The notes under the pieces are model-generated. The model saw only the letters and a list, made by a program, of their open reading frames with translations. It was not told where the DNA came from and made no database searches. A stretch of DNA of 64,000 nucleotides, from contig NJBI01000004.1 in the NCBI GenBank assembly GCA_005222975.1, positions 66,179 to 130,178 of the forward strand. Direction: 5' to 3'. This DNA comes from Promethearchaeota archaeon Loki_b31. Lineage in GTDB: Archaea > Asgardarchaeota > Lokiarchaeia > Sigyniarchaeales > SOKP01. The translations under genes and the position numbers were made by a program. Below are positions 21,418-41,739 of the stretch, in pieces (the first letter of the stretch is position 1; every line of letters begins with the position of its first letter).

Positions 21418-22209
21418 TTAAATACCGATATCCCACTTTAGAAAAGAATACGGAATGAATTTTTCTTGTTCTACTTCGGCTACTACGTATCCCTTTTTCA
21501 TAGAGTTATCTCCCTTTAAATACGCAGCTCCTAATACTCTTTCCACCTCTATTTCGCCCCAAGGATCGCTCTCAGATGACCTTAATGTAATTTCTGCGTT
21601 CCCCAGTTTTAATTCCTTAGGTCTTAATGGAACCTCTTCTCTTATTAACCGCGGGTTGTAATCAAAACCCTTACCATCTGGAGAAGGAAAATGCTTAAAA
21701 TTATATGTTACTGACACAATTTCAGAGCCATCACCAATTGTGCCCGTAAAAAGCTCCATAGCATCAGGTGCATTTAATCTACCGTTCAGTTTTGCCTTAA
21801 CTTCGTAATATCGCGTTCCTTGGCGCTCTATCCATCCTTCAACGATTCTCTTTTCACGTTTAAAATAGATATCTGCCATTTTTTTTGGATATCCAAATAC
21901 CTCTCGACCAGCGACTAACGCTTGGTCGTCTGTAACCGGCATTGATAGACAATAACCTCCTTCTACACCGTCAAATTCTGCACTTAGAAAAAGAGCGCCT
22001 TCGTTATATGTCACTCCGAAATTTGTTTTAGGATAATAAGCGACAAACGCGTAGGCAATTGGAGTGTCCGTAGGTTTTAACGGAGGCGGTAGCAACCGTT
22101 TTATTATTTCGGGTTTTGTCTCCCAATACACGACCAGCAGTTCTGCGTCGTAGAAGTCAGCGGTTTCTCTTTTAGTCATAAACCCGCCCGAAGATCTTAA
22201 AAAACTCGT
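21418..22209 (-). CDS. Acetoacetate decarboxylase-like family protein (probable ACG start at 22209; first ATG 22179)
   Basis: LPPPL, YNEGAL, GREVFGYPKK (Schiff-base Lys region). SD GAGGTGA lies 7 nt before ACG. Confidence 0.88.
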   Translation of the reverse strand, partial: TSFLRSSGGFMTKRETADFYDAELLVVYWETKPEIIKRLLPPPLKPTDTPIAYAFVAYYPKTNFGVTYNEGALFLSAEFDGVEGGYCLSMPVTDDQALVAGREVFGYPKKMADIYFKREKRIVEGWIERQGTRYYEVKAKLNGRLNAPDAMELFTGTIGDGSEIVSVTYNFKHFPSPDGKGFDYNPRLIREEVPLRPKELKLGNAEITLRSSESDPWGEIEVERVLGAAYLKGDNSMKKGYVVAEVEQEKFIPYSFLKWDIGI

Positions 22210-22295
22210 TTTATTTTCACCTCAAATTAGATTTTTACTAATATTATTATTAATATTTCAATTTTTAATTTAAAATTACTGGATTGATTATTTAT

Positions 22296-23510
22296 TTATA
22301 ACAATGCTTGATCTATTAGTTCCATTAGATCGACCATCTTAATATTTGAATTTAAAGCGATTATTGCATCTGTTAGATTTCTATAACAAAATGGGCATAT
22401 ACTTATGAGGTAATCTGCGCCAGTCTCCTCAGCTTCCTGAACTCTAGTCTTAGCAATTTCTAATGCTAAATCGGGAAAGCCTTTCTTTACGCCTCCACCA
22501 GCTCCGCAACATTTAGCGTTCTCTTTAATCGTTTTCATCTCGGTTAAATTAGATATTTTTGATAATATCTCTCTTGGTTCTTCGTAAAGCGGTGAAAGGC
22601 CAGAATTTCTTCCTGTATGACAGGGATCGTGATAGGTCGTATTAATTTCTAAATTATTAAGAGTTATATCTTTTTCCTCTAAAAAAGATTTGATATACTC
22701 GATTGTGTGAAACACTCTAATTTCTAAGTCCTCAATAAGGTCAGCGTAATCTACTTTTAAAGTCCTGTAACAACCCGCGCAACTCGTAATTATAGTGTTA
22801 ACGCCACTTTTTTTGAACAACTCGTAGTTTTTCGCAGCCACTGAATTGAATGCTTTCATATCCCCAGTTCTCTTACCTACGCTCCCGCAACATACTTCAT
22901 GTTCTCCAAAAATAGAAAAGTCAACTCCAAGTTTACGAAGTACTTTTGCTGTGTTTATAGCGACTGCTTGAATATCTGGAGTTAGAGCAGCAGTGCACCC
23001 AACAAAATAAAGCACATCCGCTTTTTCAGAATAGGCATTTTTTACCTTAAAATCAAGTTTTTCCCTCCAATTCTTTTTCTCTTTGTTATCTCTCTGATAT
23101 GGATTTAATAATTCAACCATTGCCTGATTCATTGGTATGTGTGCTTCCAGACCACAACCTGCGTCAATTAATTCCGCTCTTAAAGCCTCGTAAATAACTG
23201 TGTTATCCATATCATAGGCACAAGCTTCAGAGCACGCGTTACAAGTTGGACATTGATAAATAACTTCAGCCATATCTTTGCTTAGCTCTAATTTTCCTTG
23301 CCAAAGAGAGCGAATAATTTGCATTTTTCCCCTTCCAAAGAAAGCTTCAAAGCCAGATGTGTGATCTCTTGCCACGCAAACGCCCCATTTTTGCGGATCT
23401 GAAGTATAATCTGTAGCTTCTCGACAATCTCCACAACTTATACATTGTAAAATTGTCGGGCCAATTTTACTTAAATGCTTAAACTTTTCGTTAGGATTTA
23501 TTTCAGTCAT
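22296..23510 (-). CDS. Fe-S oxidoreductase with ferredoxin-type and two CCG domains (GlcF/HdrD-like)
   Basis: CISCGDC, CPTCNACSEAC, YFVGC, EVCCG, SCAGC, YHDPCH, CCGAGGG, CPFC. Confidence 0.92.
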   Translation of the reverse strand: MTEINPNEKFKHLSKIGPTILQCISCGDCREATDYTSDPQKWGVCVARDHTSGFEAFFGRGKMQIIRSLWQGKLELSKDMAEVIYQCPTCNACSEACAYDMDNTVIYEALRAELIDAGCGLEAHIPMNQAMVELLNPYQRDNKEKKNWREKLDFKVKNAYSEKADVLYFVGCTAALTPDIQAVAINTAKVLRKLGVDFSIFGEHEVCCGSVGKRTGDMKAFNSVAAKNYELFKKSGVNTIITSCAGCYRTLKVDYADLIEDLEIRVFHTIEYIKSFLEEKDITLNNLEINTTYHDPCHTGRNSGLSPLYEEPREILSKISNLTEMKTIKENAKCCGAGGGVKKGFPDLALEIAKTRVQEAEETGADYLISICPFCYRNLTDAIIALNSNIKMVDLMELIDQALL

Positions 23511-23521
23511 CTTATTTCCAT

Positions 23522-25057
23522 CTACTCTTCATTTTTAATAATATTTTCTGTTATATCACTATCGTAACTATACATATGAAATTTATTTGGAGACAATAAA
23601 AAATCAGGGTCTACAACCCTTTTCATATCTTTAAAAAATTGTAAAAATTCGGGAGTATAAGCGTTGGCTTCTACTATTGACTGAGAGATTGATTCTCCTA
23701 ACCAATAATGTACACCCCCATACCGAACTTGATACCTTACCTTTTTATGCCATATATCCATAGCGACTTGACGTTGATCATCTACATTTTCGGCATTAAA
23801 ACCACCAGCAAAAATACAATGACCATTAGGTAATAGATGGATTGATCTAGCGAATAATGAAAAACTTTGAGCCGGGAAATTACCTCTATTTTCGTTATCA
23901 AACCCCTCGTTTAACTCTTTCTTATCTGCTATGGACGAAATTAGTATTTTATGACAAGTTGTACAGGATATTTTAGGAGGCGCTAAGGAGATAAATTTGT
24001 TGAAATAGCTATAAGGAAATTTAAAATCAAACTTCCAGTCCTTAGCTAATTTTAGATCTAGATCAATTTCTGTCCATTCAAAAGGTCTTGCAACATTATC
24101 TTTAATCATTATTCTATTTACTTGTTCAATATAGACGTCCAAAATTCGCTCGTCAAACGCTTCAAGTATAAACATAAAAACAGGTCCACTAAGTCTAGCT
24201 CTTTTTGGGGGTCGAATTTTAGCTTGGGAAGCTAAGAGTTGTACTACTACGCGTGGGTTTATATAAAGATCGTGTATTCCGTCTTTAACTTCTTTTTGTA
24301 GTTTATACATTAATTCAAAAACTTTATTATAATCATCTTTTTTAAGAATGTAATTTTTCTGTATCTTATAAGGCGAATTAGGGAATAACCTTAAAGAACA
24401 TTTAGTTTTAATGCCCATAGTTCCTGCATCTCCCATAAATAGCCCCGTAAAATCGGGAGCAACGCCGTACCTACAAAAAGGTTTTGCGTACTTATTAGCT
24501 GCAGCTCCAGTCCAAATTATCGTTCCTTGCGGATTTGGCAATACTACCTCAACACCTAAGCAAATGTTTGGAACTAAACCATATTTAGTGGACCCAAAAC
24601 CAGCGGTGCTGTTAGAAAGACCTCCTCCAATTGTGGCTGAAAATCCACTTCCGGGACCAAGAACACCTGTCGTTAAATCTTTTTTGTATAGTTCTGATAA
24701 TAAAGCCCCCCAGGTTACTCCACATTCTACTTCACAATAGAAATCCTTTTCATTTATTTCAATAATTTTATTCATTCGCGTAAGATCAATAAGGATTCCC
24801 CCTTCAATTGTCGCGCCTCCAACTAAATCGGCCCCTCCTCCTCGCGGTACTATAGGTATTTTATAATTATTAGCAATTTTTACAATATCTGAAACTTCTT
24901 CCGTAGTCTCTGGACGTACTATGATATCAGCCCATCTATCAGGAAAGGCAGGATCAACGTTTCTAGAATAGGCAGCTTTCATGAAATCTTTATCGGAGAT
25001 ATATTCTGTTCCAACCGCTATTTCAATTTCTTTGTATACCTTATCAATTTTGGACAT
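23522..25057 (-). CDS. FAD-linked oxidase, VAO/PCMH family (GlcD/D-lactate dehydrogenase-like), copy B
   Basis: IVRPETTEEV, PRGGGADLVGG, ATIGG, GDAGTMGI, VDPDFLLSP. Confidence 0.9.
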   Translation of the reverse strand: MSKIDKVYKEIEIAVGTEYISDKDFMKAAYSRNVDPAFPDRWADIIVRPETTEEVSDIVKIANNYKIPIVPRGGGADLVGGATIEGGILIDLTRMNKIIEINEKDFYCEVECGVTWGALLSELYKKDLTTGVLGPGSGFSATIGGGLSNSTAGFGSTKYGLVPNICLGVEVVLPNPQGTIIWTGAAANKYAKPFCRYGVAPDFTGLFMGDAGTMGIKTKCSLRLFPNSPYKIQKNYILKKDDYNKVFELMYKLQKEVKDGIHDLYINPRVVVQLLASQAKIRPPKRARLSGPVFMFILEAFDERILDVYIEQVNRIMIKDNVARPFEWTEIDLDLKLAKDWKFDFKFPYSYFNKFISLAPPKISCTTCHKILISSIADKKELNEGFDNENRGNFPAQSFSLFARSIHLLPNGHCIFAGGFNAENVDDQRQVAMDIWHKKVRYQVRYGGVHYWLGESISQSIVEANAYTPEFLQFFKDMKRVVDPDFLLSPNKFHMYSYDSDITENIIKNEE

Positions 25058-25093
25058 GATTCAATATTAACATATAATAGATTTGTAATATAA

Positions 25094-25894
25094 TTAATAC
25101 CAATCCCATTTGAGAAACGAATAGGGTAAAAAATCTCTTTGATCTACCTTAGCAACAACCTCTCCTGGAAGCATAGTATTGTCTGTTTTAAGATATAACG
25201 CGCCTAGTACCTTTACAACCTCAACTTCAGCCCATGGATCGTGCACAGTTGAGTTTAACTTTATTTCAGCTACACCCATTTCCATCGATATTGGACGAAC
25301 CGAAGTTTCCTGCTTAACTAACCACGGATCGTAATCAAAACCCTTTTTATTAGGTGCTGGAAAGTACTTGAAGTTATAATTAATCGTATTTTTCTTTCTT
25401 CCCGGAAGAAGACCCAACTCTTTTATGATACTTGGTGTTTCGCTATCGTTGAATTTACCGGTTAAATTTGCTTTAATTTCAATATTCTTAACTCCAAGAC
25501 GCTCAGACCAAGCTTCAACATATTTATCCTTTCGATGAAAATGTATTTTAGCTATTTTTTTAGGGAATCCAAAAATCTCCCGACCTCCAATCATCGCGCG
25601 ATCGTCGTCAACGGGCATAGCTAAGTAATAATTTCCTTGTAAGCCATTATATTCACATCTTAACGTCAAAGCACCTTCAAGATACGGTAATCCTTGATTG
25701 GTACTAGCGTAATTTGCTATAAATGACATAACTACTGGTCTACTAACAGGCTTTAAAGGAGGTGGTAAAATCTTTTCGACTATCTCAGGTTTAGTCTCCC
25801 ATAAAACGGTTATCATTTCAGCACTTTTAAATTCGGTCGTCCTTAACCTTTCTTTTCTCTCTTCTATCTCTTTTATTGAACGCTTAAAACTAAT
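25094..25894 (-). CDS. Acetoacetate decarboxylase-like family protein, copy A (probable ATT start at 25894; first ATG 25816)
   Basis: LPPPL, YLEGAL, GREIFGFPKK. The N-terminal extension aligns with the paralog. SD AAGGTGA lies 6 nt before ATT. Confidence 0.88.
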   Translation of the reverse strand: MSFKRSIKEIEERKERLRTTEFKSAEMITVLWETKPEIVEKILPPPLKPVSRPVVMSFIANYASTNQGLPYLEGALTLRCEYNGLQGNYYLAMPVDDDRAMIGGREIFGFPKKIAKIHFHRKDKYVEAWSERLGVKNIEIKANLTGKFNDSETPSIIKELGLLPGRKKNTINYNFKYFPAPNKKGFDYDPWLVKQETSVRPISMEMGVAEIKLNSTVHDPWAEVEVVKVLGALYLKTDNTMLPGEVVAKVDQRDFLPYSFLKWDWY

Positions 25895-25895
25895 T

Positions 25896-27434
25896 TTAAA
25901 TCACCTTATTTTCCTCTTTTACAAAATGTTCTGATGGATCGTGATCATAACTGTACATGTGAAACTTTTTAGGACTTAGCAAGTAATTTGGATCTACAGT
26001 TTTTTTCATATCTTTGAAAAATTGAATAAATTCACGCGTATAGGCATTAGCCTCAACAATAGATTGAGAGATTGCTTCTCCAAGCCAATAATGTACGCCT
26101 CCATATCGAACTTGAAGGCGTAGCTTTTTGTGCCACATATTCATGGATTTTTCGCGTTGTTCATCTATGTTATCGGCATTGAATCCGCCTACAACTACAC
26201 AATTACCATTAGGTAAAAGAAATATAACCGTTGCAAATAATGCAATACTTTGTGGTGGAAACTCATCCCGGTAGTTAATATCAAATTGATTGCTTAAATT
26301 TGCTACTTTAGGTAAAGCAGAGATTGGAACTTTATGACAAGTGGTACACGATATTTTCGGTGGGTTTACTGATATAAATTTATTAAAGTAGTGATAAGCA
26401 TATTTTAAATTAAATTCCCAATCTTTGGATAGAGGCTCTTCGGGGTCAATTTCTTGCCATTCGAACGGTCGAGCATCGTCTTTCATAAGATTTTCAATTT
26501 GTTCAAGGTAAACATCTAACACCCGCTCATCTGTAGATTCCACTAATATCGAAAAGACCGGTCCTTTTAATCTCGGTCTTTTGACGGGTTTATTTTCCAC
26601 CATACCTGCCAATAATTGAACTACAATAACAGGAATTACAAGTACATCGTGTAATCCGTCGCGTATTTCTTTCCGTAATTTATACATGAGCTCAGAAACT
26701 TTATTATAATCGTTCTTCTTTAACATATAATATCGTTGCGCTTTAAACGGCGTCTCGGGATGCAATCGTAGGAAAGCTTTAGTCTTAATACCCATAGTTC
26801 CTACATCCCCCATAAATAAACCCGTAAAATCGGGAGCCACTCCATATCTACAAAAAGGCTTTGCGTATTTATTAGCCGCCGCTCCTGTCCTAATTATCGT
26901 TCCTTGTGGATTTGGTAAAACTACTTCGACACCTAAACAAATATCAGGAATAACACCGTATTTTGTGGACCCAAAACCTGCAGTACTATTAGAAAGTCCA
27001 CCTCCGATAGTGGCTGAATAGCCACTCCCAGGACCGAGTACTCCTGTTGTTAAACCTTGTTTTTGTAATTCCGAAAGCAACTCACCCCAGGTGATTCCGC
27101 ATTCTACCTCGCAATAGTAATCGTTTTCATTTATTTCAATAATTCTATTCATTCTCGTTAAGTCTATCAGAATTCCACCTTCGCTTACGGACCCCCCTAC
27201 GAGGTCTGCGCCACCACCTCTGGGGATCATTGGAATTTTGTACTTATTAGCGATTTTCACGATATCAGAGACCTCTTCAGTTGATTCTGGCCTAACTATA
27301 ATATCTGCCCATCTATCTGGAAACGCCGGGTCAACATTTCGAGAATATGCCGCTTTCATAAAGTCTTTGTCTGAAATATAATCGGAACCGATTATTCCTT
27401 CTATTTCCTTATACGCATCCTTTACTTTTGACAT
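25896..27434 (-). CDS. FAD-linked oxidase, VAO/PCMH family (GlcD-like), copy A
   Basis: Close paralog of 23522-25057, sharing DKDFMKAAYSRNVDPAFPDRWADIIVRP. The MSKVK start matches the paralog's MSKID. Confidence 0.9.
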   Translation of the reverse strand: MSKVKDAYKEIEGIIGSDYISDKDFMKAAYSRNVDPAFPDRWADIIVRPESTEEVSDIVKIANKYKIPMIPRGGGADLVGGSVSEGGILIDLTRMNRIIEINENDYYCEVECGITWGELLSELQKQGLTTGVLGPGSGYSATIGGGLSNSTAGFGSTKYGVIPDICLGVEVVLPNPQGTIIRTGAAANKYAKPFCRYGVAPDFTGLFMGDVGTMGIKTKAFLRLHPETPFKAQRYYMLKKNDYNKVSELMYKLRKEIRDGLHDVLVIPVIVVQLLAGMVENKPVKRPRLKGPVFSILVESTDERVLDVYLEQIENLMKDDARPFEWQEIDPEEPLSKDWEFNLKYAYHYFNKFISVNPPKISCTTCHKVPISALPKVANLSNQFDINYRDEFPPQSIALFATVIFLLPNGNCVVVGGFNADNIDEQREKSMNMWHKKLRLQVRYGGVHYWLGEAISQSIVEANAYTREFIQFFKDMKKTVDPNYLLSPKKFHMYSYDHDPSEHFVKEENKVI

Positions 27435-27510
27435 TATAATCATAAATTTGTTTGAAAGTAATAATTATAAGATAGAACTTGTGAATTAATAAAAGTATAT
27501 GAAAAAAAGA

Positions 27511-28296
27511 TTATTTTAATTTCTTGACTCGTTTAGCTATTTTCTTTTTAATATCTTCGTAAGATGGCGGGGGTCCCGTTCTAATCTCCTTCCCGTCAAT
27601 AAAAAGTGCATCAGCGATTCCCCACTCCAAAAAAGTTTCCCTATTGAATGTATCTATTTCTGTAAAAATTACTTTATCTCCAAATTCGGAAGCTGCCCTT
27701 TTTGCTCTTTCAAAAACCATATTTTGAGCAGGGCACCAGCCATTTATAAACGCTGTCACTGATACCTTCCCTGGTATTTCTTTGGGCTTTTTCTTCTGCC
27801 TTATCATTTTAGGCGGAATAGCATCGTTGGAAAAAGGTTTCCATAGTAAAACGCTTATACTCTGCTTATCAACTTTAACATATCCTTGCTTTTTAAACCA
27901 AGAGGCTCTCATAAAGACAGGTATAGAAAGCCCCCATGCTACTAATCCTTTCGCACCCTTACTCCTTACATCTTCTTCAGCAGCTTTTATTAAACGCTTA
28001 CCGATTCCTTTCTTCTGGAAGTTCCCAACGCCCTCTTTGTAGCCGTGCACCCAGATACAATTTATAAAGTATAAATTATCGCCTTCTGCTGTTGAATATT
28101 CAAGAGGAACATATTGTATCATTCCTACTACTTTGTCGTCCTCAGTCACAGCAATTTTAACGCCAAGCCCTTTGTCTTTCATTTTGTTATACCAAAGCTC
28201 CTTGTGATCCCCAGCTTCTTTCATCTCGTCGATCCAATCTTCAAGACACATAAAATAAAGTCCGTTATATTTTTCCTCTAAATCAATTATTTTCGT
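27511..28296 (-). CDS. GNAT-family acetyltransferase with a C-terminal thioredoxin-like (YoaP-like) domain (probable ACG start at 28296)
   Basis: VGMIQY, INCIWV, FQKKGIGKRL (acetyl-CoA motif A), WFKKQGY, GWCP. Confidence 0.85.
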   Translation of the reverse strand, partial: TKIIDLEEKYNGLYFMCLEDWIDEMKEAGDHKELWYNKMKDKGLGVKIAVTEDDKVVGMIQYVPLEYSTAEGDNLYFINCIWVHGYKEGVGNFQKKGIGKRLIKAAEEDVRSKGAKGLVAWGLSIPVFMRASWFKKQGYVKVDKQSISVLLWKPFSNDAIPPKMIRQKKKPKEIPGKVSVTAFINGWCPAQNMVFERAKRAASEFGDKVIFTEIDTFNRETFLEWGIADALFIDGKEIRTGPPPSYEDIKKKIAKRVKKLK

Positions 28297-28393
28297 AAAA
28301 CATCACTCTACTAAGTATTGGATTTACTTAAATAAAACTTAATGAATATAAGTACATCTAACAATAAAAATTTATCATATATTAAATAAATCG

Positions 28394-28744
28394 TTACATC
28401 CACGAAGCTATCTTTGGAGTTTGCGCTAAAATATCGACGAGAACATCATATTCAATACATCTTATTCTTGTGTCAACTGAGTCAGGGTCAATCCCCCGCG
28501 CTAAAAGGTCGGGTGTCATCGCAAATACGGCTATGGGCAGATTTAACAATAAATTTAAAGAAGTGGGCATCACTCCCTTTTTAGGAGTTCCTATAACTCC
28601 GTCGTGGATCAAAACAACAGTGATATTTGCATCTTTAGTCTGTTCCTTTACTATATTATATAAATTATTTATGGATGTACTTTTTCTCGTGCTAAATCCA
28701 AAAAGGTACACCAATTTTTTTATCTTTTCCATCTGTACTACCAT
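28394..28744 (-). CDS. DsrH/TusB-family sulfur relay protein
   Basis: VVLIHDGV, DLLARG, IEYDVLVDIL; third gene of a DsrE-F-H-like triplet. Confidence 0.8.
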   Translation of the reverse strand: MVVQMEKIKKLVYLFGFSTRKSTSINNLYNIVKEQTKDANITVVLIHDGVIGTPKKGVMPTSLNLLLNLPIAVFAMTPDLLARGIDPDSVDTRIRCIEYDVLVDILAQTPKIASWM

Positions 28745-28756
28745 AATCCCACCACC

Positions 28757-29125
28757 CTAATATCTATAAAACACATCTGCTTCTAAAATAAACGCTGAAA
28801 TCTCCTTCCAGCTCGCATTTTTTACATTGTCAAAATCTATCAAATCTGAAGGCTCAATACCGGCTATTTCTAAGGCGGAGTCTAACGCGTAAACCTCGAA
28901 GTCAGATAACTCCATCATTCTAAAGATGTTCAAGGGGGTTTCCATGTTAACTTTCTCAGGATCAAAATTCTTACTTAAAAAATAGACCGAATCGCCAATA
29001 AATACAATCTTACACTCGTCTAGATCCCCCACTGCCATAATTCCAGCAGCCATACGGATTGCTTCGAGAGCAGAATTTTTACCTATTGGAGAATCTTCGC
29101 ATAAAATTACAACAGATTTAACCAT
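28757..29125 (-). CDS. DsrF/TusC-family protein
   Basis: SPIGKNSALEAIRMA, VFIGDSVY. ATG 29125 follows the upstream stop. Confidence 0.8.
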   Translation of the reverse strand: MVKSVVILCEDSPIGKNSALEAIRMAAGIMAVGDLDECKIVFIGDSVYFLSKNFDPEKVNMETPLNIFRMMELSDFEVYALDSALEIAGIEPSDLIDFDNVKNASWKEISAFILEADVFYRY

Positions 29126-29129
29126 TAAT

Positions 29130-29498
29130 TTACACCCCTGGACCAAATACTATAACTCTATCTGATTCTGCCATCCACTCAGACAACCCACCTAATCCCA
29201 CTTGACGCGCTTCTTCAATAAAATCATCGGACTTTAGCCCCGTGAAGTTAACCCAGGTACTACAGGCAGATAGATTTAGGCTATTCTTCTTTATGAAATT
29301 CTCAAGGCGTTCGGGTAGATTTCTCATGTTTGAGCTTATATTTATTTCACGCTTGATGTTATACACGCCACTCCCGTAGAAAAAAATACCTAAAATTTGA
29401 TGCCCTTTCTTTAAGATTGCCTCTCCTAAGTTAAGCATCGTATCTATCGCTTCAAATTTATAAGGTTCCGCGCACACAATAAAAGTAAAAACAACCAT
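29130..29498 (-). CDS. DsrE/TusD-family sulfur relay protein
   Basis: EPY, GHQILGIFFYGSGVY, conserved Cys in ACSTW, GLGGL...SDRVIVF. Confidence 0.85.
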   Translation of the reverse strand: MVVFTFIVCAEPYKFEAIDTMLNLGEAILKKGHQILGIFFYGSGVYNIKREINISSNMRNLPERLENFIKKNSLNLSACSTWVNFTGLKSDDFIEEARQVGLGGLSEWMAESDRVIVFGPGV

Positions 29499-29656
29499 AT
29501 TAGCAATATCACATCTTTTTAATATTTTATTATAATGATATTTTTTTAATTTTATCTCCTATTTTAACTTATCAAGAACTTGTATTAATTTTATGTACTT
29601 TTAAATCAAAAATCATCAATTAAAATATACTATATTGAAAGGGTGCTAATTTCTAT

Positions 29657-31644: not shown

Positions 31645-31716
31645 ATTTTTTTTCTATTTTAAAAAATAACATGACAGGATATCTTCTTTCCATTAAAAAT
31701 TTTAATGAATCACTCT

Positions 31717-32076
31717 TTAGAACCATTGAGTGGCATCAGCTTCTAATGATAAGTCATTTAATGTTGCTGCTCCTACTATTTTAACCCCGGGAATAAGTTC
31801 CACCTTTTCCCATCCTAACATTCTTTTTGAGGCTTCACAAACTAAAATTTCAACTCCCATTTCCAGAGCTTTATCTAACATCTCTTTGACACTGGGAAAT
31901 CCTCCTAGTTTTATTTTTTCGGCCTCTCCCGGTTTTAATATTCGCAGTCCTGTCCCTAAGTAGTAAACTGTTGCTTTAATATCCATTGCTTTAGCGGTCT
32001 GCGCTAAGACTAACGGTGAATATTGTCTTTCTGGATCATCACTCGTTTGAACATATAATATATATTTTTTTTCGAT
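31717..32076 (-). CDS. DsrE/DsrF-like family protein (probable ATC start at 32076; first ATG 31986)
   Basis: The extension supplies YILYVQTSDDPERQYSPLVLAQTAKAMD. Also GVEILVCEAS and VGAATL. SD GAGGTG lies 7 nt upstream. Confidence 0.85.
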   Translation of the reverse strand: MEKKYILYVQTSDDPERQYSPLVLAQTAKAMDIKATVYYLGTGLRILKPGEAEKIKLGGFPSVKEMLDKALEMGVEILVCEASKRMLGWEKVELIPGVKIVGAATLNDLSLEADATQWF

Positions 32077-32266
32077 TTCTATACACCTCTTTATTTTTTT
32101 AATTTAAAATTATTTGGTTATATTAAGTTTTATATTAAAACCTCAAATATACTTATACGTTTATCGTTCTTATCTTTGGTTTTTCTAATAAAATTATTTT
32201 CCTCTTCTTTTTTTCAGTAATAATAGCTCAATTACATATTATACAATTCTTAAACTAATAGAAACT

Positions 32267-33214: not shown

Positions 33215-33351
33215 TAATATTAATTATATAATATTCGCAATAATTGCGATAATATTTAAATTTTATAATCAAAATAAATAATTACCTAAATTTCTAATAT
33301 ATTTATGAATTGAAATATAAAGTGGAAATATAATTTTAAAGGGTTTTTTCA

Positions 33352-33639
33352 ACGATTGATATAAAAATATTCTTTTTATCTTTATTGGCAGACATTACAG
33401 GAATAGAAGAAATTATAATGTCATTTGACGATAACTCAACCATTAAAGATGTATTAAAAAAATTGAACTTAAAATTTGGAAAAGATTTTGAAAATAGTGT
33501 AATGAATACTCCAGATTTATTAAATAAATACATTCTTATAGGGAAAAATGGAAAAGATATTCGTTCTTTTGAAGGTTTGATCACCACTGTTCAAGAGGGA
33601 GATGAAGTTTTCTTATTACCTGCCATAGCTGGAGGATAA
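33352..33639 (+). CDS. MoaD/ThiS/SAMP-type ubiquitin-like sulfur carrier (probable ACG start at 33352)
   Basis: C-terminal GDEVFLLPAIAGG and NGKDI. The beta-1 strand IDIKIFFLS lies upstream of the TTG at 33385. Confidence 0.9.
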   Translation, partial: TIDIKIFFLSLLADITGIEEIIMSFDDNSTIKDVLKKLNLKFGKDFENSVMNTPDLLNKYILIGKNGKDIRSFEGLITTVQEGDEVFLLPAIAGG

Positions 33640-33668
33640 AGAGCTTATTTGTGATATCTTTATTCAAA

Positions 33669-34688
33669 TTATAAAAGAAATGGTTTTAAAGAATCTTGAG
33701 TTGCTTTTTCGACTATTAAATGTTCAGTCAAAGTTTTAGGTTCTTTACCGTATATAATTTTTCCATATGAATTTTTCGCATCCGAATACCTTAATGTCAA
33801 ACTTGCAGCAAAGTTGATTGCTTTCACATCAATTCTCCCTAGAATAAGTGTAGTAGGTCCATGTACTCTAGCTGCCTCCATTACTATGTCATCGGGGCCT
33901 TTTAACTGAAGTAATAAACCATTTTCTAATTTATTTCTTCCAATAATAATCTTAGAATGATTAAACCGAAAATGTCTGCCGTATTTCAATAGTCTTACAT
34001 CGTCCATAGTTAAGATTTTATTAAATTTAAGATAATCTCTCATTCTACTAGCAAATTCTTTTTCTGTAAGAAGGCATCCTCCACAAGCATAATATTCATT
34101 CAATAATCCATGAGATCTCGCGAGTTCAAGTTGTATTTTTCTACTTCGTCCCTTTATCCCTAATAATTTAGATCTATCAATTATTCCTTTTTCTTCTAAA
34201 ATAGTAGGTTTTAATAATAAAGCCGATAAAGGTCTAAGCAATTTTCCCTCAAGTAAAGCCTCCTTTTCAATAGTCTTTAAAGCTTTTAAATTTTGAGACT
34301 TAGGTCTTTGATCTAGTACTTCTCCCGTAAAGATAAAATCAGCATTTATTTTATCAGCAAATTTTTTAGCTTTCTTTAAAATATAAATCCTACAATCGAT
34401 ACATGGGTTCAAATTTTTACCGTAACCGAATTTAGGGTTTCGTATTATTTCTAAATAGTCGTTTTCTTTTTGAAGAAAATAGGTTTTTATTCCTAACTTG
34501 TCGTAATAAAGATTTAAACCGCACTCGGAATTTTTATGGGCTTTATCACATATACAAAATGGAGATTTGAAATTTAAACCAATTACCTCAATATTTTGTA
34601 GTTTTAAAAGTAAACAAGCAATTAAACTATCTAAACCTCCAGAAATTAATCCTAGCCCTAAAGGGGAGCCTTTTTTAAAGTCTTCCAA
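33669..34688 (-). CDS. PP-loop tRNA sulfurtransferase-like protein (ThiI/MnmA-related, no THUMP) with a C-terminal NFACT-R/DUF814-like domain
   Basis: SGGLDS, NPCIDCR, TGEVLDQRPKSQ, GGCLLT, GRHFR...IIGRN. Confidence 0.85.
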   Translation of the reverse strand: MEDFKKGSPLGLGLISGGLDSLIACLLLKLQNIEVIGLNFKSPFCICDKAHKNSECGLNLYYDKLGIKTYFLQKENDYLEIIRNPKFGYGKNLNPCIDCRIYILKKAKKFADKINADFIFTGEVLDQRPKSQNLKALKTIEKEALLEGKLLRPLSALLLKPTILEEKGIIDRSKLLGIKGRSRKIQLELARSHGLLNEYYACGGCLLTEKEFASRMRDYLKFNKILTMDDVRLLKYGRHFRFNHSKIIIGRNKLENGLLLQLKGPDDIVMEAARVHGPTTLILGRIDVKAINFAASLTLRYSDAKNSYGKIIYGKEPKTLTEHLIVEKATQDSLKPFLL

Positions 34689-34715
34689 TTAACTTTTTCA
34701 CCGATTTACCGATTT

Positions 34716-34982
34716 TCATAACTTCTTTAATAATAGTATCCATTCGTATTTTTCTGGATTCATTTCTTTTATTTTAATGACTTCAGCTAAATTTTGTCGC
34801 TTACAACTTACAGGGATATTCTTGAGAGCTGCAGGGAAATCCAAGTGAACTTCTAAAATACTCCCTTCTTCGAGCTTTTCCAGAGTTAGTTTAGTAAGTA
34901 CAAATGTCATTGGGCATACTTCTCCCCGGATATCTAAGTACTCAACATCATTTTTATTTTTTATATTATTCATCGCAGACAT
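34716..34982 (-). CDS. tusA: TusA/SirA-family sulfurtransferase
   Basis: LDIRGEVCPMTFVLTKLTL. Confidence 0.9.
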   Translation of the reverse strand: MSAMNNIKNKNDVEYLDIRGEVCPMTFVLTKLTLEKLEEGSILEVHLDFPAALKNIPVSCKRQNLAEVIKIKEMNPEKYEWILLLKKL

Positions 34983-35775
34983 TTTCCCCCTCGTAATTTA
35001 ATATTTCGACTAAGTCCTTTGCATTGGCGCCACATGCAATACAATTATTATCTCTATGTACTTCGATAAAATCAAAATTGTTCCTTAAAAGATCAACATA
35101 CATAATTTTGTTTGTTAAAAGTTCACCTATACATAAAATACTTTTAATTGCCTCATTAGCCTCTAAACACCCTAAAACGCCAGGCACCAACCCAATTACT
35201 CCTGCTTGAGAACACGACATACTCGGATCGCCTTCAGTTATATCACCGAACACACACCTATAGCAACTTGTTTTATCTTTTGGAACTACTGTCATTATTT
35301 GTCCGTGGAATCTCAAAACGCCTGCAATTGTAAAAGGTGTTTTTAAATTTATACATGTATCATTAATTAGCATTTTAGTTGAGATGTTGTCCGAACCTTC
35401 AATAACATAGTCCGAATCTTTAAGGATATCTTTTGAATTATTGGCTGTAATTCTTTCATTTATAATTTCTATGGTACAATCAGGGTTTAGCAAGTTAAGC
35501 TTTTCCACAGCGCTCTTAGTTTTTTGCTTGTTAATGTCTTTTGTAAAATGAAGAATTTGTCTGTGCAAATTTGATATTTCCACTATATCAAAATCTATTA
35601 TTTGTAAACTTCCAACACCCGCTGCTGCTAAATAGTAGGCGGCAGGAGATCCAAGAGCACCTAAACCAATTAATGAAATCTTTGAATTTAATAATTTCCT
35701 TTGCCCGATTCCTCCAACTTCCTTTAAAACTATTTGACGCGAATATCTTCTAATTTGTTCGTTAGTTAAATCCAT
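34966..35775 (-). CDS. ThiF/MoeB/UbaA E1-like adenylyltransferase
   Basis: RYSRQI, GLGALG, SNLHRQ, CYRC, SCSQAGV, CIAC. Confidence 0.94.
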   Translation of the reverse strand: MDLTNEQIRRYSRQIVLKEVGGIGQRKLLNSKISLIGLGALGSPAAYYLAAAGVGSLQIIDFDIVEISNLHRQILHFTKDINKQKTKSAVEKLNLLNPDCTIEIINERITANNSKDILKDSDYVIEGSDNISTKMLINDTCINLKTPFTIAGVLRFHGQIMTVVPKDKTSCYRCVFGDITEGDPSMSCSQAGVIGLVPGVLGCLEANEAIKSILCIGELLTNKIMYVDLLRNNFDFIEVHRDNNCIACGANAKDLVEILNYEGENVCDE

Positions 35776-35900
35776 TTGTAGTCGTTTTAAATAAAATGTT
35801 TAATAAAGAAAGCTCTTTAGATTATAAAAAAAAAGGTGCAAGTTTTACATTCTTATTTTATATAAGATAAAAAATGAACAGTATCAAGTAAAGTAAAAAC

Positions 35901-36446
35901 TTATGTCCGGATTAAAGTACCAATTTTTCCCCCTATTTTTTGCCTAGAATTACCCGGCACGCCATTAAATATGCCTTCCTCAATCAGGTCGTAAATAGAA
36001 TGCTTTAACGCGATTAAAGGTATTTTTTGAATCTCTTTTAGTTCTATTAACTCGTCTATTGTGATAGATTCTCCAGGTGAAATAATAGATTTAATAAATT
36101 TTTTAATATCAGCTAAATCAGTCGTAAACGTAATAATATCGCGATCGTCTTTTTTCGTTAGAGAAACTTTAGACACGCTTATTTCTGACATTAAAAACCT
36201 AACCTGTTCTTCCAGTAATTTAACTCTTCCTTTTAACTCTGATATTGCGTCTTTACTAGTCTTCCTTGGAATAGATTTTTGTGCTAAATATTTATTTAGG
36301 AGTTGTTCAAGATAGGTTTCTTCAATACCAGCATTTTTTATGGTGGCAATTTTCTCTGGCTTCTTAGTACCTTTTTTAAATTTAATCCCACACTCTTTAG
36401 CTAACCGGTCCAATAGGGAAACGGTCAATTCGTTCAAATTTGCCAT
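35901..36446 (-). CDS. Putative nucleic-acid-binding protein (Rho-N/HeH-like N-terminus, coiled coil, C-terminal wHTH-like)
   Basis: LNELTVSLLDRLAKECGI...KPEKIATI, ELKGRVKLLEEQV, SITIDELI...IYDLIEEG. Confidence 0.55.
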   Translation of the reverse strand: MANLNELTVSLLDRLAKECGIKFKKGTKKPEKIATIKNAGIEETYLEQLLNKYLAQKSIPRKTSKDAISELKGRVKLLEEQVRFLMSEISVSKVSLTKKDDRDIITFTTDLADIKKFIKSIISPGESITIDELIELKEIQKIPLIALKHSIYDLIEEGIFNGVPGNSRQKIGGKIGTLIRT

Positions 36447-36607
36447 TTAAAGTCATCCACGAATATCTTGTTATTTTTCTTTAATCTATGTTAGGAGAAT
36501 TATTACTTAAATAAAACTGTTGCAACAGATTTTAAAAACATCGTTATTAAAAATTAGAAATCTTAAAAAATTAATATTAAAATTAAAAAAAAAAGAAGTA
36601 ATTAAAC

Positions 36608-37429
36608 CTATTCATTCAAAAATTCAAGTATTAACTCGTTTACCTGAGGAGCGTATTCTAAAAATAAGTGATGACCTGCTTTATCAATGACATTTATTCT
36701 ACTATTTGGAAGTTTTTCGTTTAACTCGTCCATTACCAATTTTGGAGACAGTTTATCGTTGGAAGCTGCGATTAACAAAGTTGGGTGAGAAATTTGGGAA
36801 AGCTTGTCCCTTGTATCGTGCGCATCAAGTGCATCCGCTAAAAGCTTATAATCGTGGGGGGTCATTTGATCTTCTGTAGTCTCTTTGATTAAATCCTCTG
36901 CGGACCATAATCCATGAAATTTCTTTTGAGGGTCTGCTTTCATTTCTTTTATAAAAGCCCTATAATGCGTTAATTTAGAATAGTCCCAAAAAGCTTGCTC
37001 TTTATTTTCCTTCCGAAGTTCAAAAAAGTTACTCATACTTCCTTCCATCATATGAATACCTGCTCCTTTATGATTAGTTCCAACTAAAATCAATTTATTG
37101 GCACGCTCTGGGTATTTTAACACAAAATTTTGAGTCACCCAACCACCCATAGATTGACCCATTAGATGAGCCTTTTCTATTTTTAGAAAATCCAATAAAC
37201 CTTTTAAATCCTCAACTAATGTATCCATCGTATAAGGATCTTTAGGGCGTTCTGATTTTCCACTGCTACGGCAATCGTAAGTGATAACCTTAAAATCTTT
37301 TGATAAAGCACCAACTTGAGTCATCCAAACTTCCTTTTTTGCGCCAAAACCATGAAGTAATACAAGAGGGTATCCATCTCCATTAACTTCGTAAAAAAGT
37401 GATGTTCCATTTACATTTGCTAACGACAT
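36608..37429 (-). CDS. Alpha/beta hydrolase
   Basis: LLHGFG, GQSMGG, NDKLSP, AGH. Confidence 0.93.
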   Translation of the reverse strand: MSLANVNGTSLFYEVNGDGYPLVLLHGFGAKKEVWMTQVGALSKDFKVITYDCRSSGKSERPKDPYTMDTLVEDLKGLLDFLKIEKAHLMGQSMGGWVTQNFVLKYPERANKLILVGTNHKGAGIHMMEGSMSNFFELRKENKEQAFWDYSKLTHYRAFIKEMKADPQKKFHGLWSAEDLIKETTEDQMTPHDYKLLADALDAHDTRDKLSQISHPTLLIAASNDKLSPKLVMDELNEKLPNSRINVIDKAGHHLFLEYAPQVNELILEFLNE

Positions 37430-37535
37430 AATATTTATTTAAATCAAATCTCACTTATAACTTTTAAAATTCAGTTGATTTTTAAAAATAAATAATAGCC
37501 TAAAAGACTTAAAAAAATTTAACGAAAAACCCTTA

Positions 37536-37601
37536 ATGGTACAAGAGGATGATTGGGACGCTTTTAACGAGAAGTTTTTTCGGTCGTTTACTGAACTTTA
37601 A
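37536..37601 (+). CDS. Candidate 21-aa small ORF / leader peptide MVQEDDWDAFNEKFFRSFTEL
   Basis: Runs from ATG 37536 to TAA 37599-37601. It is less AT-rich than its flanks and overlaps a palindrome followed by T-runs. Confidence 0.35.
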   Translation: MVQEDDWDAFNEKFFRSFTEL

Positions 37602-37636
37602 GTTCAGTTTATTAATTTTTTTTGTTTCTTTTTTTT
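37590..37636 (+). terminator. Inverted repeat actgaact-tta-agttcagt followed by T-rich tracts (terminator/attenuator-like)
   Basis: Perfect 8-bp arms at 37590-37597 and 37601-37608, then poly-T. Confidence 0.4.
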
Positions 37637-37716
37637 AGCTCAAAAATCGAAGAATTTATTATCTTTTCTTGTTTATTATTAACAGATGTTTCGTAAAGAG
37701 GCATTTTAAAAAAAAA

Positions 37717-37977
37717 ATGGTTTTAAAAGTGGTAAAGGGAACCGTTAAATGGTTTGACTCTAGAAAAGGATTTGGATTTATAACGCGTGAAGATGGTTCG
37801 GGTGATATTTTCGTTCACTTCTCAGCAATCAAAGGAGATGATAACGAATTTAAGATCATCTATGAAGGAGATATCGTAGAATTTGAGATCACAGAGGGGC
37901 AGAAAGGCCCTCAAGCAACTGACTTAACTATTGTCGAAAGAGGACCGCGCGAGGATTATAGATCAAGACGTTATTAA
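37717..37977 (+). CDS. csp: Cold-shock domain protein
   Basis: GTVKWF, KGFGFI (RNP1), DIFVHFSAI (RNP2), KGPQA. Confidence 0.95.
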
Positions 37978-38233
37978 GAATTAATGTAGTAGTTAATTTA
38001 GAACGCGTATCAAAAAAATACATATTAAAGGAAATATCAGAATAATAGAAACGCACAAAATGCTCTTGGGAGAAAATTTTTACTTTTTATTATTGGTTTT
38101 TGAATTTCCCCCTTTTTTTTTATTACATTTTTTTACAATAATTAATCAAATTTGAAATACTCAAATAGAGTTAATGTAAAATCATTTTTATTATATCAAA
38201 TTATATATTGCTAAAATTATATTATAGAACTTG

Positions 38234-39277
38234 ATGGTAAACCTTTTCAAATCCTTTGGTAATTTTACCACTGGGCAGACTTCATACTTGGCTCTCGTTT
38301 CAAAAAAATCCAGAGGTACCATCACGTTAACTGACAAGGAGTTTTCTTTTAAATCCGAAAAAGATAACATAGTATTTCAAATGAGAATACGCGATATTGA
38401 AAATTTTTCTATAAGAAATCGATTAAAACTTCCAACGATCGAATTAATAAGCGTCCAAGGAATCGTTTTTACGTTTTATCCTCATAAAAAAGAAAATAGT
38501 TCGCTTTTTACATCAAAAAAATCAACAGAAGAACTTTTTAGACAACTAACAAGGATTACTTACAAAGAGGAAAGCCCGATTTTGTTTGAAATTAAGGGCG
38601 GATTTATGGCCGACAGCTCCATTGGCGAAAACTCTGCATCTGAAACGCTAAAAGGGATTATTTTTTTAAACGAAGATTATTTATCTTTTAAACCATTTAA
38701 CGAGAAAACGGTGTACCAAATTGCTATATTGAATATTTTAAGAATTATGAAAGAGGATACCAATTTGGGTCCATCTGTAAAGATTCAAACTAATCAAAAC
38801 ATAATTTATTCGTACATAGTACTCAAAAAACAATTGGGCTTGTACGTAAAAGATAAATCAAAAACGGAAAAATTATTTGAAATTATAAACCAAGCGAAGA
38901 TATATAAAACATCAGAGCAAATCCGATTAGAAAAAGAAGACAAGGAACGAATCGAACGGGTCAAATCGATGATGGAAGTCTCAAATCGGTTAAGGTTTGA
39001 TATGATGCGTATTGCGTTAGACATGGACGAAAAGACTTTTACGGAAAAGGTGTTCCAATGGGCAAAACGATTCAAGTTTTTAATAGATGGGGATTATTTG
39101 ATCGTTAATCAAGATACAGTTGAAGATTTCCTCAACGATTTATCTACTGGAGCGGGCGTCTTATTACGTAGGGGGTTAAAAGTTTATTGCCAATTTTGCG
39201 AGAAAAAGATTGATTCCAACGCAAAAATATGTCCATATTGCGGGAAGGAATCTGGGCTAACAACAGGAGAGACTTAA
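38234..39277 (+). CDS. Protein with two GRAM/PH-like domains, a helical domain and a C-terminal zinc ribbon
   Basis: RGTITLTDKEFSFKS and KGIIFLNEDYLSFKP, plus CQFC...CPYCG. Confidence 0.65.
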   Translation: MVNLFKSFGNFTTGQTSYLALVSKKSRGTITLTDKEFSFKSEKDNIVFQMRIRDIENFSIRNRLKLPTIELISVQGIVFTFYPHKKENSSLFTSKKSTEELFRQLTRITYKEESPILFEIKGGFMADSSIGENSASETLKGIIFLNEDYLSFKPFNEKTVYQIAILNILRIMKEDTNLGPSVKIQTNQNIIYSYIVLKKQLGLYVKDKSKTEKLFEIINQAKIYKTSEQIRLEKEDKERIERVKSMMEVSNRLRFDMMRIALDMDEKTFTEKVFQWAKRFKFLIDGDYLIVNQDTVEDFLNDLSTGAGVLLRRGLKVYCQFCEKKIDSNAKICPYCGKESGLTTGET

Positions 39278-39347
39278 AAAATTAAAAAGTGGACTTATTA
39301 GCGGAAAATCAAAGAAAATTGAAAAAAATTTTTTTTTAAGATAGGAG

Positions 39348-40712
39348 TTATTCTCCCCATTGGACTAAGCGTCGTTCTCCTTCTAGCGTTTTAATGTGAG
39401 TAATATCTTGCGATACTTCTAATGTACCGATGTATTTGTCTTGGTCGTCCCTTATGGCAAAATATCGAATGTTTATAAATTTATCGCCGAGTTGTATCCA
39501 AAATTCAGCCACACTCTTTTCCCCGCTTTTAAATTTCGCTACAATATCTTCTACAATATGCATTGATTTTGGGGGGTGGCATTTTTGAACCTTCCTTCCT
39601 ATGACCGCTGGGCTCCTTGGAAATAGACGGTCGTCGGTTGCGGAATAATATTTTACTTCGTCGTTAACATCAACAAACGAGATATCAATAGGTAAATGTT
39701 TTAACATTAGGTTGATTTGCTTTAAAGATAACTTACCCGTATCTAAATCAAGCAAATTTGAAGATTCTAACTTGATCTCAGGGGCATGAACATCACTAGG
39801 CGTTACTGGTTTCCATTTATCTCCAGGGCGTACCCAAACATAACCAATTTCTTCTTCGCCACGTTTAACACGAGCCCAATCTGATTCTTTAAATTTTTCA
39901 AGCGCCATTGGAAATAAAATGTGCTCTTCTTTGTAAATCATCTCATCCACTTTTTCTATGAGCTCTTCGATATTTTCAAGCTTGTTTTCTTTAAAACCTG
40001 CTCGAATCTCGTCGTGAACTGCCCACATTACTTGAGGTGGGCCAGAAATGTCCAAATTCTCTAGTATTGGAAAAAGTTGATTCTCAATGCGAGTATAATG
40101 AATCTCTAATTTTGCTAGTTCTTTTAATAATTCTAATTTATTCTCATCGGCAGCGGATCGTATTTTCTGGATTAAATCCCTTGCTATCTTATTCTCTTCC
40201 ATATAAGTGTGAATTGGGTGTCCTGAAACTGTTTCTGGACTTTCCTTTTCATCCAACATATCTTTGAATAATTCAACGTGTATATCACATAGTTCAGTAA
40301 TTTGATCAGCTTTCAGAATCCCTTCATCAATTAAACTTTGTTCCATCTCACCTATTTCAGACGACGATACATCTACTAAAATCTCTTTAAACCGTTGTTT
40401 AAGGCCCTCGAGCTCCGCTCCCTTGTGCATGTCAATTACGAGTTCTTTTAATTGTTTTCTTCGTTGAGTTTTTAATTCCTGTATCTCTTCTGAAGTTTTA
40501 CCCATCGATTCTTCAATTACTTGGAGAATTTTGCTCAAATCAACGTCAATTAGTTTTGAAACATCCTTTATTGTAGCGCTTTTTCCAATAGTTCTTCTTA
40601 CTATTGGATTTTTAAGTCGCTTAATTTTAGGCGATAGCTTAAGTAATTCGTTATAGACGTGTGGAAACTGTTTAATTAAGGGTAATATCTTAGTTTTTTT
40701 ATTTATATCCAT
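39348..40712 (-). CDS. DUF438 family protein (DUF1858 + DUF438 + hemerythrin-like + PAS)
   Basis: LCDIH, GHPIHTYMEEN, HY...ENQLFP, VMWAVHDEIR, KEEHILFP, IGRKVQKCHPPKS. Confidence 0.9.
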   Translation of the reverse strand: MDINKKTKILPLIKQFPHVYNELLKLSPKIKRLKNPIVRRTIGKSATIKDVSKLIDVDLSKILQVIEESMGKTSEEIQELKTQRRKQLKELVIDMHKGAELEGLKQRFKEILVDVSSSEIGEMEQSLIDEGILKADQITELCDIHVELFKDMLDEKESPETVSGHPIHTYMEENKIARDLIQKIRSAADENKLELLKELAKLEIHYTRIENQLFPILENLDISGPPQVMWAVHDEIRAGFKENKLENIEELIEKVDEMIYKEEHILFPMALEKFKESDWARVKRGEEEIGYVWVRPGDKWKPVTPSDVHAPEIKLESSNLLDLDTGKLSLKQINLMLKHLPIDISFVDVNDEVKYYSATDDRLFPRSPAVIGRKVQKCHPPKSMHIVEDIVAKFKSGEKSVAEFWIQLGDKFINIRYFAIRDDQDKYIGTLEVSQDITHIKTLEGERRLVQWGE

Positions 40713-40842
40713 ATTACTACTACCTTTACAAAAATAATTGCTCTAAGCTATATCAACATAATATATAATTTAATTTTTTATGTGAACTTCTTCATAAAAA
40801 TTGAAAAAAAATAAAAAAATATCAATTTAACTTGAACTCCAA

Positions 40843-41739
40843 TTAACCTAAGATAATTTTATAGAGATCTTTAGCGAATTGTAGTTGAAATTTTAATAAT
40901 TTATTGGAATCCAAGGTTAAAATTCTGAATTTTACAAAGATTTCGTTGCTAAAGTCTAAAACATGAAAGTGTGGTCGAAAACCAAAAATTTCTCCGTATT
41001 TACCGCATAATCTATTAAATTGGTCTATCTTGATACGGAATTCTCCGTACGGAACTCGCATTTTGAAAGTGTAAGAATGTATTATCTTTTTGCGGTCTTC
41101 AGAAAACGAGTTAAAGAAGTTTTTGACGTCGTTCTCTTCTTGTTTTCTAATAACCTCGTTGTAAGCATCAATGTCTAATCGAGCGTTGCCAACATCTTGG
41201 GGAGCTCGAATTTGTCTTTTAAAGTGAAAATATTTCTTTCTTGATTTGGGCTTTATCGTATAGTTTAACACTATTGACGAAACAACATCAGAATTGGAAA
41301 TTTCTACGATAATACGGTCAAACGTCTCAATAACGATTTTTGTAAGCGTAATAGACTTAATTACGCCCTTATGGCCAGAAATTTTAACTACATCCCCAAT
41401 ATCAATAGGATCTATAACCCATAATAATACACCTGCTACAAAATTAGAAAAAATTCCGCTTGTTACGAACGCTAAAGCTGTGCTTAATGCACCCGTTACT
41501 ATTGCAGTAGTTTCAGGAGGGAGTGTTGTGAACGAGGGAAATCCGTTTATTATAAAGTAAAGTAGGGTTAATATCGACGCTATTCTAATTACAAAAATTA
41601 ATTTATTTTGTTTTACTATAGGGATTTTCCCTATTCGACTAAACAAATACGATAAAAACTTGTTAACAATAACCAATGAAATGGCAATGATAAAAACAAA
41701 AACAAACGCTTCAGGATCACTATTAAAGATTGAGTCTAT
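40843..41739 (-). CDS. MscS-family mechanosensitive channel-like protein (probable ATA start at 41739)
   Basis: SNFVAGVLL, PIDIGDVVKI, GVIKSI, ISNS. The extension completes the first TM helix. Confidence 0.82.
   Translation of the reverse strand: MDSIFNSDPEAFVFVFIIAISLVIVNKFLSYLFSRIGKIPIVKQNKLIFVIRIASILTLLYFIINGFPSFTTLPPETTAIVTGALSTALAFVTSGIFSNFVAGVLLWVIDPIDIGDVVKISGHKGVIKSITLTKIVIETFDRIIVEISNSDVVSSIVLNYTIKPKSRKKYFHFKRQIRAPQDVGNARLDIDAYNEVIRKQEENDVKNFFNSFSEDRKKIIHSYTFKMRVPYGEFRIKIDQFNRLCGKYGEIFGFRPHFHVLDFSNEIFVKFRILTLDSNKLLKFQLQFAKDLYKIILG

Follow-up and report, generated by a model that had tools for sequence, protein, structure and literature searches.

The stretch of DNA analysed here (the window, 64,000 nucleotides) belongs to contig NJBI01000004.1 of Promethearchaeota archaeon Loki_b31, a metagenome-assembled genome (MAG) of 3.52 Mb and 31.5% GC in 99 contigs, which is 92% complete with an estimated contamination of 6%. 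The database entries of its close relatives are labelled as MAGs of Promethearchaeota or Promethearchaeia, which places them among the Loki-type Asgard archaea. In the middle part of the window, where the minus strand carries most genes, lie six genes that encode two paralogous proteins of the acetoacetate decarboxylase family (ADC_A and ADC_B), a GNAT acetyltransferase, a DsrE-like protein, a MoaD/ThiS-like ubiquitin-fold protein and an MscS-type mechanosensitive channel. A first-pass annotation of this DNA had proposed that all six are translated from ACG, ATT, ATC or ATA, each placed behind a motif resembling a Shine-Dalgarno (SD) sequence. All six codons and their motifs are indeed present with the positions and spacings given in Table 1, five of them on the minus strand and that of MoaD on the plus strand.

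Table 1. Positions in the window of the six genes with near-cognate start codons and of the SD or SD-like motifs in front of them.
Feature	Coordinates	Strand	Proposed start	First downstream ATG or TTG	Spacing of motif to start	Remark
ADC_B, acetoacetate decarboxylase family (PF06314)	21418..22209	-	ACG 22209-22207	ATG 22179, 10 codons downstream		
SD of ADC_B, GAGGTGA	22217..22223	-			7 nt before ACG	includes the in-frame upstream stop, TGA
ADC_A, acetoacetate decarboxylase family	25094..25894	-	ATT 25894-25892	ATG 25816, 26 codons downstream		
SD of ADC_A, AAGGTGA	25901..25907	-			6 nt before ATT	
GNAT acetyltransferase	27511..28296	-	ACG 28296-28294	ATG 28251, 15 codons downstream		
SD-like motif of GNAT, GAGTGA	28303..28308	-			6 nt before ACG	imperfect, no 5-mer match to GGAGGTGA
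DsrE-like protein	31717..32076	-	ATC 32076-32074	ATG 31986, 30 codons downstream		
SD of DsrE, GAGGTG	32084..32089	-			7 nt before ATC	
MoaD/ThiS-like ubiquitin-fold protein	33352..33639	+	ACG 33352-33354	TTG 33385, 11 codons downstream		
SD-like motif of MoaD, AGGGT	33340..33344	+			7 nt before ACG	weak
MscS-type mechanosensitive channel	40843..41739	-	ATA 41739-41737	TTG 41676, 21 codons downstream		this TTG lies within the first transmembrane segment (TM1)
SD of MscS, GGTGA	41746..41750	-			6 nt before ATA	within the 3' end of the upstream gene

The reading frames of these genes leave little room for another start. An in-frame stop precedes the proposed site by 4 codons in ADC_B, 2 in ADC_A, 2 in GNAT, 9 in DsrE, 4 in MoaD and 1 in MscS, in agreement with the first-pass statement that it lies within five codons in five of the six, and between this stop and the proposed site no ATG, GTG or TTG occurs in any of the six genes. 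These frames open so near the proposed start because in four of the six the stop is supplied by the TGA within the SD motif itself (GGTGA or GTGA). All the families assigned exceed their Pfam gathering cut-offs (ADC PF06314, GNAT PF00583, DsrE PF02635, ThiS PF02597 and MscS PF00924). The sequences gained by reading from the unusual codons are conserved as protein in all six genes, with the strongest domain evidence in DsrE. Positions 2-113 of the Pfam DsrE profile correspond to residues 5-116 of the extended protein, so that the 30 codons before the first ATG belong to the domain, as had been suggested, and the Pfam domain match of ADC_A begins 7 residues ahead of its first ATG. The similarity noted earlier between the N-termini of the two ADC paralogs is also found (xSFLRS and xSFKRS). 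ADC_B, ADC_A and GNAT (22207-28296) form one conserved cluster in which all three genes have unusual starts, and synteny of the cluster extends to at least four relatives (G005 C43, G009 C422, G017 C79 and G021 C158).

The first line of evidence on these codons comes from orthologs. Each of the six proteins was searched for in 40 relatives and the DNA was read at the aligned start. Every one of the six genes has relatives with ATG or TTG at precisely the aligned codon, so each unusual codon occupies the start-codon position of its family. The codons are also exchanged with one another. In the genus, the start of DsrE, scored at the aligned codon or two codons before it, is mostly ATG or TTG, with ATA in six cases, single cases of ATT and of ACG, and ATC in the genome described here, and in other families of the order it is ATG. 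The ATT of ADC_A is found in five relatives, down to 76% identity, while six others have ATG (MSF, MGF or MYSF). For MscS, 13 genomes with identities as low as 43% all have ATA while the codon after it varies freely among them, and six further genomes have ATG (3) or TTG (3) in its place. For ADC_B, four close relatives retain ACG AGT TTT TTA, and two more distant ones, G014 and G015, have ATG AGT TTT TTA (MSFLRESGGF) at the aligned codon. The ACG of GNAT is found in three close relatives; genome G005 has ATG in a context that is otherwise identical letter for letter (tagagtga TGT TTT ATG AAA ATA), and more distant orthologs have ATG or TTG at the aligned codon. The ACG of MoaD is found in two close relatives, with ATG ATT GAT (MIDVKI) in seven orthologs.

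The second line of evidence is statistical and extends to the whole genome. As the MAG contains no 16S rRNA gene from whose 3' end the anti-SD could be defined, the SD was defined from k-mers enriched upstream of genes; this upstream signal is of the GGAGGTGA type, with G enriched at -14 to -8. The scan that followed took in 3,000 stop-to-stop open reading frames (ORFs), each 100 codons or longer, which together span 86% of the genome. In every ORF only the section before the first ATG, GTG or TTG was considered, and a codon was counted when it followed a GGAGGTGA match of 5 nt or more at a distance of 5-8 nt; the base permutations of each codon served as its own controls. ATT is found at such positions in 23/1877 cases (permuted controls 8/2704, 4.1-fold), ATA in 28/1471 (9/1796, 3.8-fold), ATC in 12/481 (12/1865, 3.9-fold) and ACG in 6/133 (10/846, 3.8-fold). 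Pooled, the four codons give 69/3962 against 39/7211, a 3.2-fold enrichment (p=1.5e-9). In the same scan AAG and AGG show no enrichment at SD spacing and CTG is marginal (3/93 with an SD). The spacing profile has its maximum at 6-7 nt, both for near-cognate codons and for ATG. The background-subtracted share of near-cognates among SD-led starts rises from 12% to 23% and 33% for SD matches of 4, 5 and 6 nt, which indicates that near-cognates prefer strong SDs. Raw counts of AGGTGA-N-codon taken without ORF context give no signal, as they are swamped by intragenic matches. Among the genome-wide candidates, the extension scores as coding in 49/52; extensions behind permuted-control codon matches score as coding equally, so that the score is used here as an absolute one and the comparison does not discriminate. 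Many of the control-codon matches probably sit beside a real near-cognate start or inside coding sequence.

The excess over background amounts to about 50 genes (1.7%). When ORFs are counted irrespective of the SD, about 160-180 have coding-like sequence ahead of the first ATG, GTG or TTG; this is an upper bound of about 5%, since frameshifts and fragments are included. We therefore estimate that near-cognate starts serve about 1.7-5% of genes genome-wide (about 50-160 genes) and about 10% in the window. The earlier proposal that one gene in ten is affected thus describes the window well, where 6-7 of about 65 ORFs are involved, but not the genome as a whole. A seventh candidate in the window has a geometry like that of the six genes: on the plus strand, GAGGT is followed after 8 nt by ATA (4865-4867), 10 codons before the first ATG (4895) of an ORF running to about 5350, with an in-frame TAA two codons upstream. 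On the minus strand, an ATT at an SD spacing of 7 (48139-48137) stands immediately before an ATG (48136), and either may be the start.

The same scan was applied to relatives. In G032, a complete genome from another family of the same order, 1.6 Mb were scanned and the enrichment is 2.7-fold (p=0.007). In G077, from another class of the phylum and with 41% GC, it is 0.8-fold, in a control of limited power that covers only 0.8 Mb with 91 SD-led canonical starts. The lack of enrichment in G077 indicates that the method alone does not create the signal and that the habit is not phylum-wide.

Further evidence comes from the gene for aIF1, the start-codon proofreading factor, which lies outside the window. 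The single SUI1 (aIF1) gene (G000 C88:29424-29774, minus strand) opens after a TGA and has no ATG, GTG or TTG before the codons of the CPxC zinc knuckle. Its leader reads GGTTGTGA, 9 nt, ATT AAA GA, and this arrangement is the same in 18/18 genomes of the genus. Each of the 67 species-level MAGs that carry this ortholog has, behind an SD-like motif, ATT or in a few cases ATC, and none has ATG, GTG or TTG before the zinc knuckle. Elsewhere in the order the gene starts at ATA in one genus of a neighbouring family and at TTG, GTG or ATG in other members, and in other classes it starts at ATG, including G077, with one exception at ATA. In G047 (locus L243, from another family of the phylum) aIF1 reads AGGAGG, 9 nt, ATA TCT GAG ATA TGT where its neighbours read ATG TCA GAA ATT TGT, which may represent an independent near-cognate aIF1 start outside the order. 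The strict conservation of ATT, with ATG never seen, points to selection for a weak start on aIF1. The conserved ATT or ATC start points to initiation that is tuned rather than merely sloppy.

With the position, conservation, statistics and phylogenetic spread of the near-cognate codons documented, we consider it very probable that these codons are genuine SD-directed translation starts in this Loki-type family of the Promethearchaeota, a reading drawn from comparative sequence analysis. In the mechanism we propose, the 30S subunit would be placed by GGAGGTGA-type SD pairing 6-7 nt upstream, and the initiator Met-tRNA (anticodon CAU) would then pair with a codon one base off AUG, the mismatch falling at the third position for AUU, AUA and AUC and at the second for ACG. 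The near-cognate codons would be the only start of intact, conserved genes and would interchange with ATG or TTG over evolutionary time. A strong and optimally spaced SD presumably offsets the weaker codon-anticodon pairing, and initiation at near-cognates is expected to be less efficient than at canonical codons.

Several observations weigh against this reading or limit it. A SD match of at least 5 nt is present in 4/6 genes, the motifs of GNAT and MoaD being weaker; k-mers AGTG and GTGA, relevant to the GNAT motif, are enriched 4- to 7-fold upstream of starts, and AGGG and GGGT, relevant to the MoaD motif, 4- to 5-fold. The genome-wide enrichment of ACG is modest (p=0.014 for the counts given above), and a like trend for ACG appears in the control genome G077 (2/51 vs 1/311). 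The ACG of the three ACG genes is common to very close relatives only (90-98% identity), which makes the ACG cases look weaker than those of ATT, ATA and ATC (together ATH), and for these three genes individually a recent loss of the start with initiation at the downstream ATG or TTG is possible. ADC_A and MscS abut an upstream stop, and termination-reinitiation could contribute there. Finally, nothing unusual that would explain a lower stringency is seen in the anticodon arm of the initiator tRNA or in the residues of aIF1. The one initiator tRNA found (C55) has the canonical GGGCUCAUAACCC arm, and the aIF1 alignment has no family-specific substitution at otherwise conserved positions, except F for L beside the zinc knuckle. 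The first-pass annotation had proposed to look for substitutions in aIF1 and the initiator tRNA. Of its idea of a relaxed, SD-positioned initiation, the SD-positioned part is supported by the 3.2-fold enrichment; neither the tRNA arm nor aIF1 lends support to a relaxed fidelity. The tRNA census (12-14 by aragorn, 22 by Rfam) is too incomplete for seeking an extra initiator-like tRNA. The initiator tRNA gene (G000 C55, minus strand, at about index 13163 of the reverse strand) apparently contains an insert, located within or behind the T arm, and the tRNA genes of this MAG are either intron-rich or poorly assembled.

Among the other explanations, the decay of start codons survives best, although we regard it as improbable. 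It supposes that the ATG was lost, that a truncated protein is made from the next ATG or TTG and that the extension, open and protein-like, is a leftover on which decay has yet to act. It fits the restriction of the ACG of ADC_B, GNAT and MoaD to close relatives, which are too similar for measuring selection on the extension, and it fits MoaD in particular, where the downstream TTG is exactly the point at which the Pfam match to ThiS begins. However, where the relatives are distant enough the extensions behave as coding sequence. In the DsrE extension the proportion of synonymous differences (pS) is about 0.6 and that of nonsynonymous differences (pN) about 0.07 (pN/pS about 0.1), and between the ADC_A extension and the ATT-bearing ortholog of 76% identity pS is 0.77 and pN 0.15 (pN/pS about 0.2). 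By these ratios both extensions, which are open, are under purifying selection in lineages that have the unusual codon, which speaks against their being dead remnants of genes now translated from a later start. The 13 genomes that share the ATA of MscS have kept an open hydrophobic extension along with it. A truncated DsrE would lack the first 30 residues of its domain and a truncated MscS half of TM1, and an aIF1 made from a later start would be without its zinc knuckle. Nor does decay predict an enrichment at SD spacings of 6-7 nt.

Coupling between neighbouring genes, in which ribosomes that end the upstream gene would restart at whatever codon follows and would need no separate recognition of the near-cognate codon, is a very improbable explanation of the whole set. 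It is suggested by MscS, whose ATA overlaps the TAG of the upstream gene as ATAG, and by ADC_A, where the TAA of the upstream gene terminates 1 nt before the ATT; the SDs of both genes lie inside the upstream gene. Against it, four of the six sites either stand 86-190 nt away from the gene upstream or lie at a divergent promoter, DsrE and aIF1 are not coupled, and the genome-wide candidates were chosen by SD geometry and not by overlap.

C-to-U editing of the mRNA, which the first-pass annotation had raised for ACG, is more improbable still. A single change would turn ACG into AUG at the three ACG sites and allow canonical initiation in the RNA, but it would leave ATT, ATA and ATC unexplained, which are far commoner genome-wide (63 vs 6 matches), and the SD geometry of the ACG sites is the same as that of the ATH starts. 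We know of no C-to-U editing of mRNA in archaea. Contigs from RNA runs, derived from strains of 94-95% identity, cover 22207-22209 and 25892-25894, and among the 40 listed of about 1,036 differences none falls at a start codon. Errors of sequencing or assembly that changed ATG to ACG, ATT, ATC or ATA might be suspected in a MAG of 99 contigs with an estimated contamination of 6%, but are of negligible probability given that the same codons occur in independently assembled MAGs of other species and that the stretch is also present on metagenome contigs from at least six studies.

Genuine SD-directed near-cognate initiation, then, remains the reading that we prefer, and it can be placed beside several known systems. 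NCBI translation table 11 includes ATT, ATC and ATA among its rare initiators, and infC and pcnB of E. coli are the textbook cases. The archaeal starts resemble these bacterial ones in having a normally spaced SD, a codon one base off AUG and ATG at the position of the ortholog. They differ in that ACG is also used and in their number, for in bacteria a handful of genes per genome is concerned and here about 50-160 genes, with up to one third of the starts that have the strongest SDs. The AUU start of infC serves the autocontrol of IF3, whose synthesis rises when IF3 is scarce (PMC4705826). As with infC, the gene of a fidelity factor itself has a weak codon, AUU in bacterial infC and ATT in aIF1 here, but the factor is aIF1 and not IF3, the two not being homologous (PMC7531240), and the feedback in the present case is our inference.

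In eukaryotes, initiation at the near-cognates CUG, ACG, GUG and AUU is policed by eIF1 and eIF5, and eIF1 is autoregulated via the poor context of its own start (PMC4705826). The likeness includes a proofreading factor of the e/aIF1 family, one-mismatch codons that would be read here too by the initiator Met-tRNA, and a weak start on the factor itself. Unlike eukaryotic non-AUG starts, which are reached by scanning, are of low efficiency and mostly open upstream ORFs or alternative isoforms, the codon here is determined by the SD and would be the only start that ordinary genes have, and CUG, the best eukaryotic near-cognate, is rare. Among archaea, ribosome profiling of Haloferax volcanii with harringtonine placed about 30% of putative alternative initiation sites at near-cognate codons (PMC7261190). 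The authors of that study discounted these sites as potential false positives, and most of them are alternative ones (PMC7261190), whereas those described here are conserved primary starts of annotated families, found by comparative genomics rather than from footprints. Within the Asgard archaea, a 'rare ATT start codon' has been reported for the tubulin gene AtubA of a Heimdallarchaeia MAG (PMC13394414). In that case the deposited protein is without its first beta strand and an upstream ATT at a plausible distance from a ribosome-binding site restores the N-terminus; the report is a remark on one gene made during cloning and describes no genome- or lineage-wide usage (PMC13394414). Apart from this single-gene remark, we found no systematic description of near-cognate starts in Asgard archaea in the literature searched. 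What appears to be new, and is supported by the comparisons presented here, is near-cognate initiation at an unusual frequency, dependent on the SD, in a Loki-type family and with the proofreading factor included.

The start of aIF1 also leads us to a tentative suggestion on regulation. Archaeal aIF1 is reported to reject an AUU model mRNA in vitro (PMC4705826). A negative feedback similar to that of infC could be envisaged, in which a low level of aIF1 would allow more initiation at AUU and hence the synthesis of more aIF1. The output of all genes with near-cognate starts would then depend on the level of aIF1. It is conceivable, though on balance we would not expect it, that these genes form a translational regulon set by the concentration of aIF1, which would restrain itself through its invariant AUU start.

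The practical consequence foreseen by the first-pass annotation, that gene callers truncate such proteins, can already be seen in public data. On 23 public contigs (NCBI, JGI and Logan) the DsrE gene has been called from the internal ATG as a protein of 89 aa, which indicates that gene finders cut proteins of this kind, while an exact look-up of the truncated 240-aa form of ADC_A gave no record. On contigs from one cold-seep metagenome, 31633 is linked to 35899 by no more than 16-17 other letters, and the 4.3 kb that contain DsrE, MoaD and three neighbouring genes are missing, which points to presence/absence variation between strains. Searches of Asgard genomes for eukaryote-like proteins rely on gene calls that admit ATG, GTG and TTG only. 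If it is true that 2-5% of genes start elsewhere, N-termini would be cut or genes missed in such searches.

In archaea, aIF1 is believed to guard the fidelity of start-codon choice, a role that eIF1 has in eukaryotes. A lineage with routine use of AUU, AUA, AUC and ACG, and with AUU on aIF1 itself, would be a natural system for studying how this stringency is set, and it may bear on whether a stringency control of the eukaryotic type predates scanning. Since cultured relatives exist in the same order, the claim is open to direct test.

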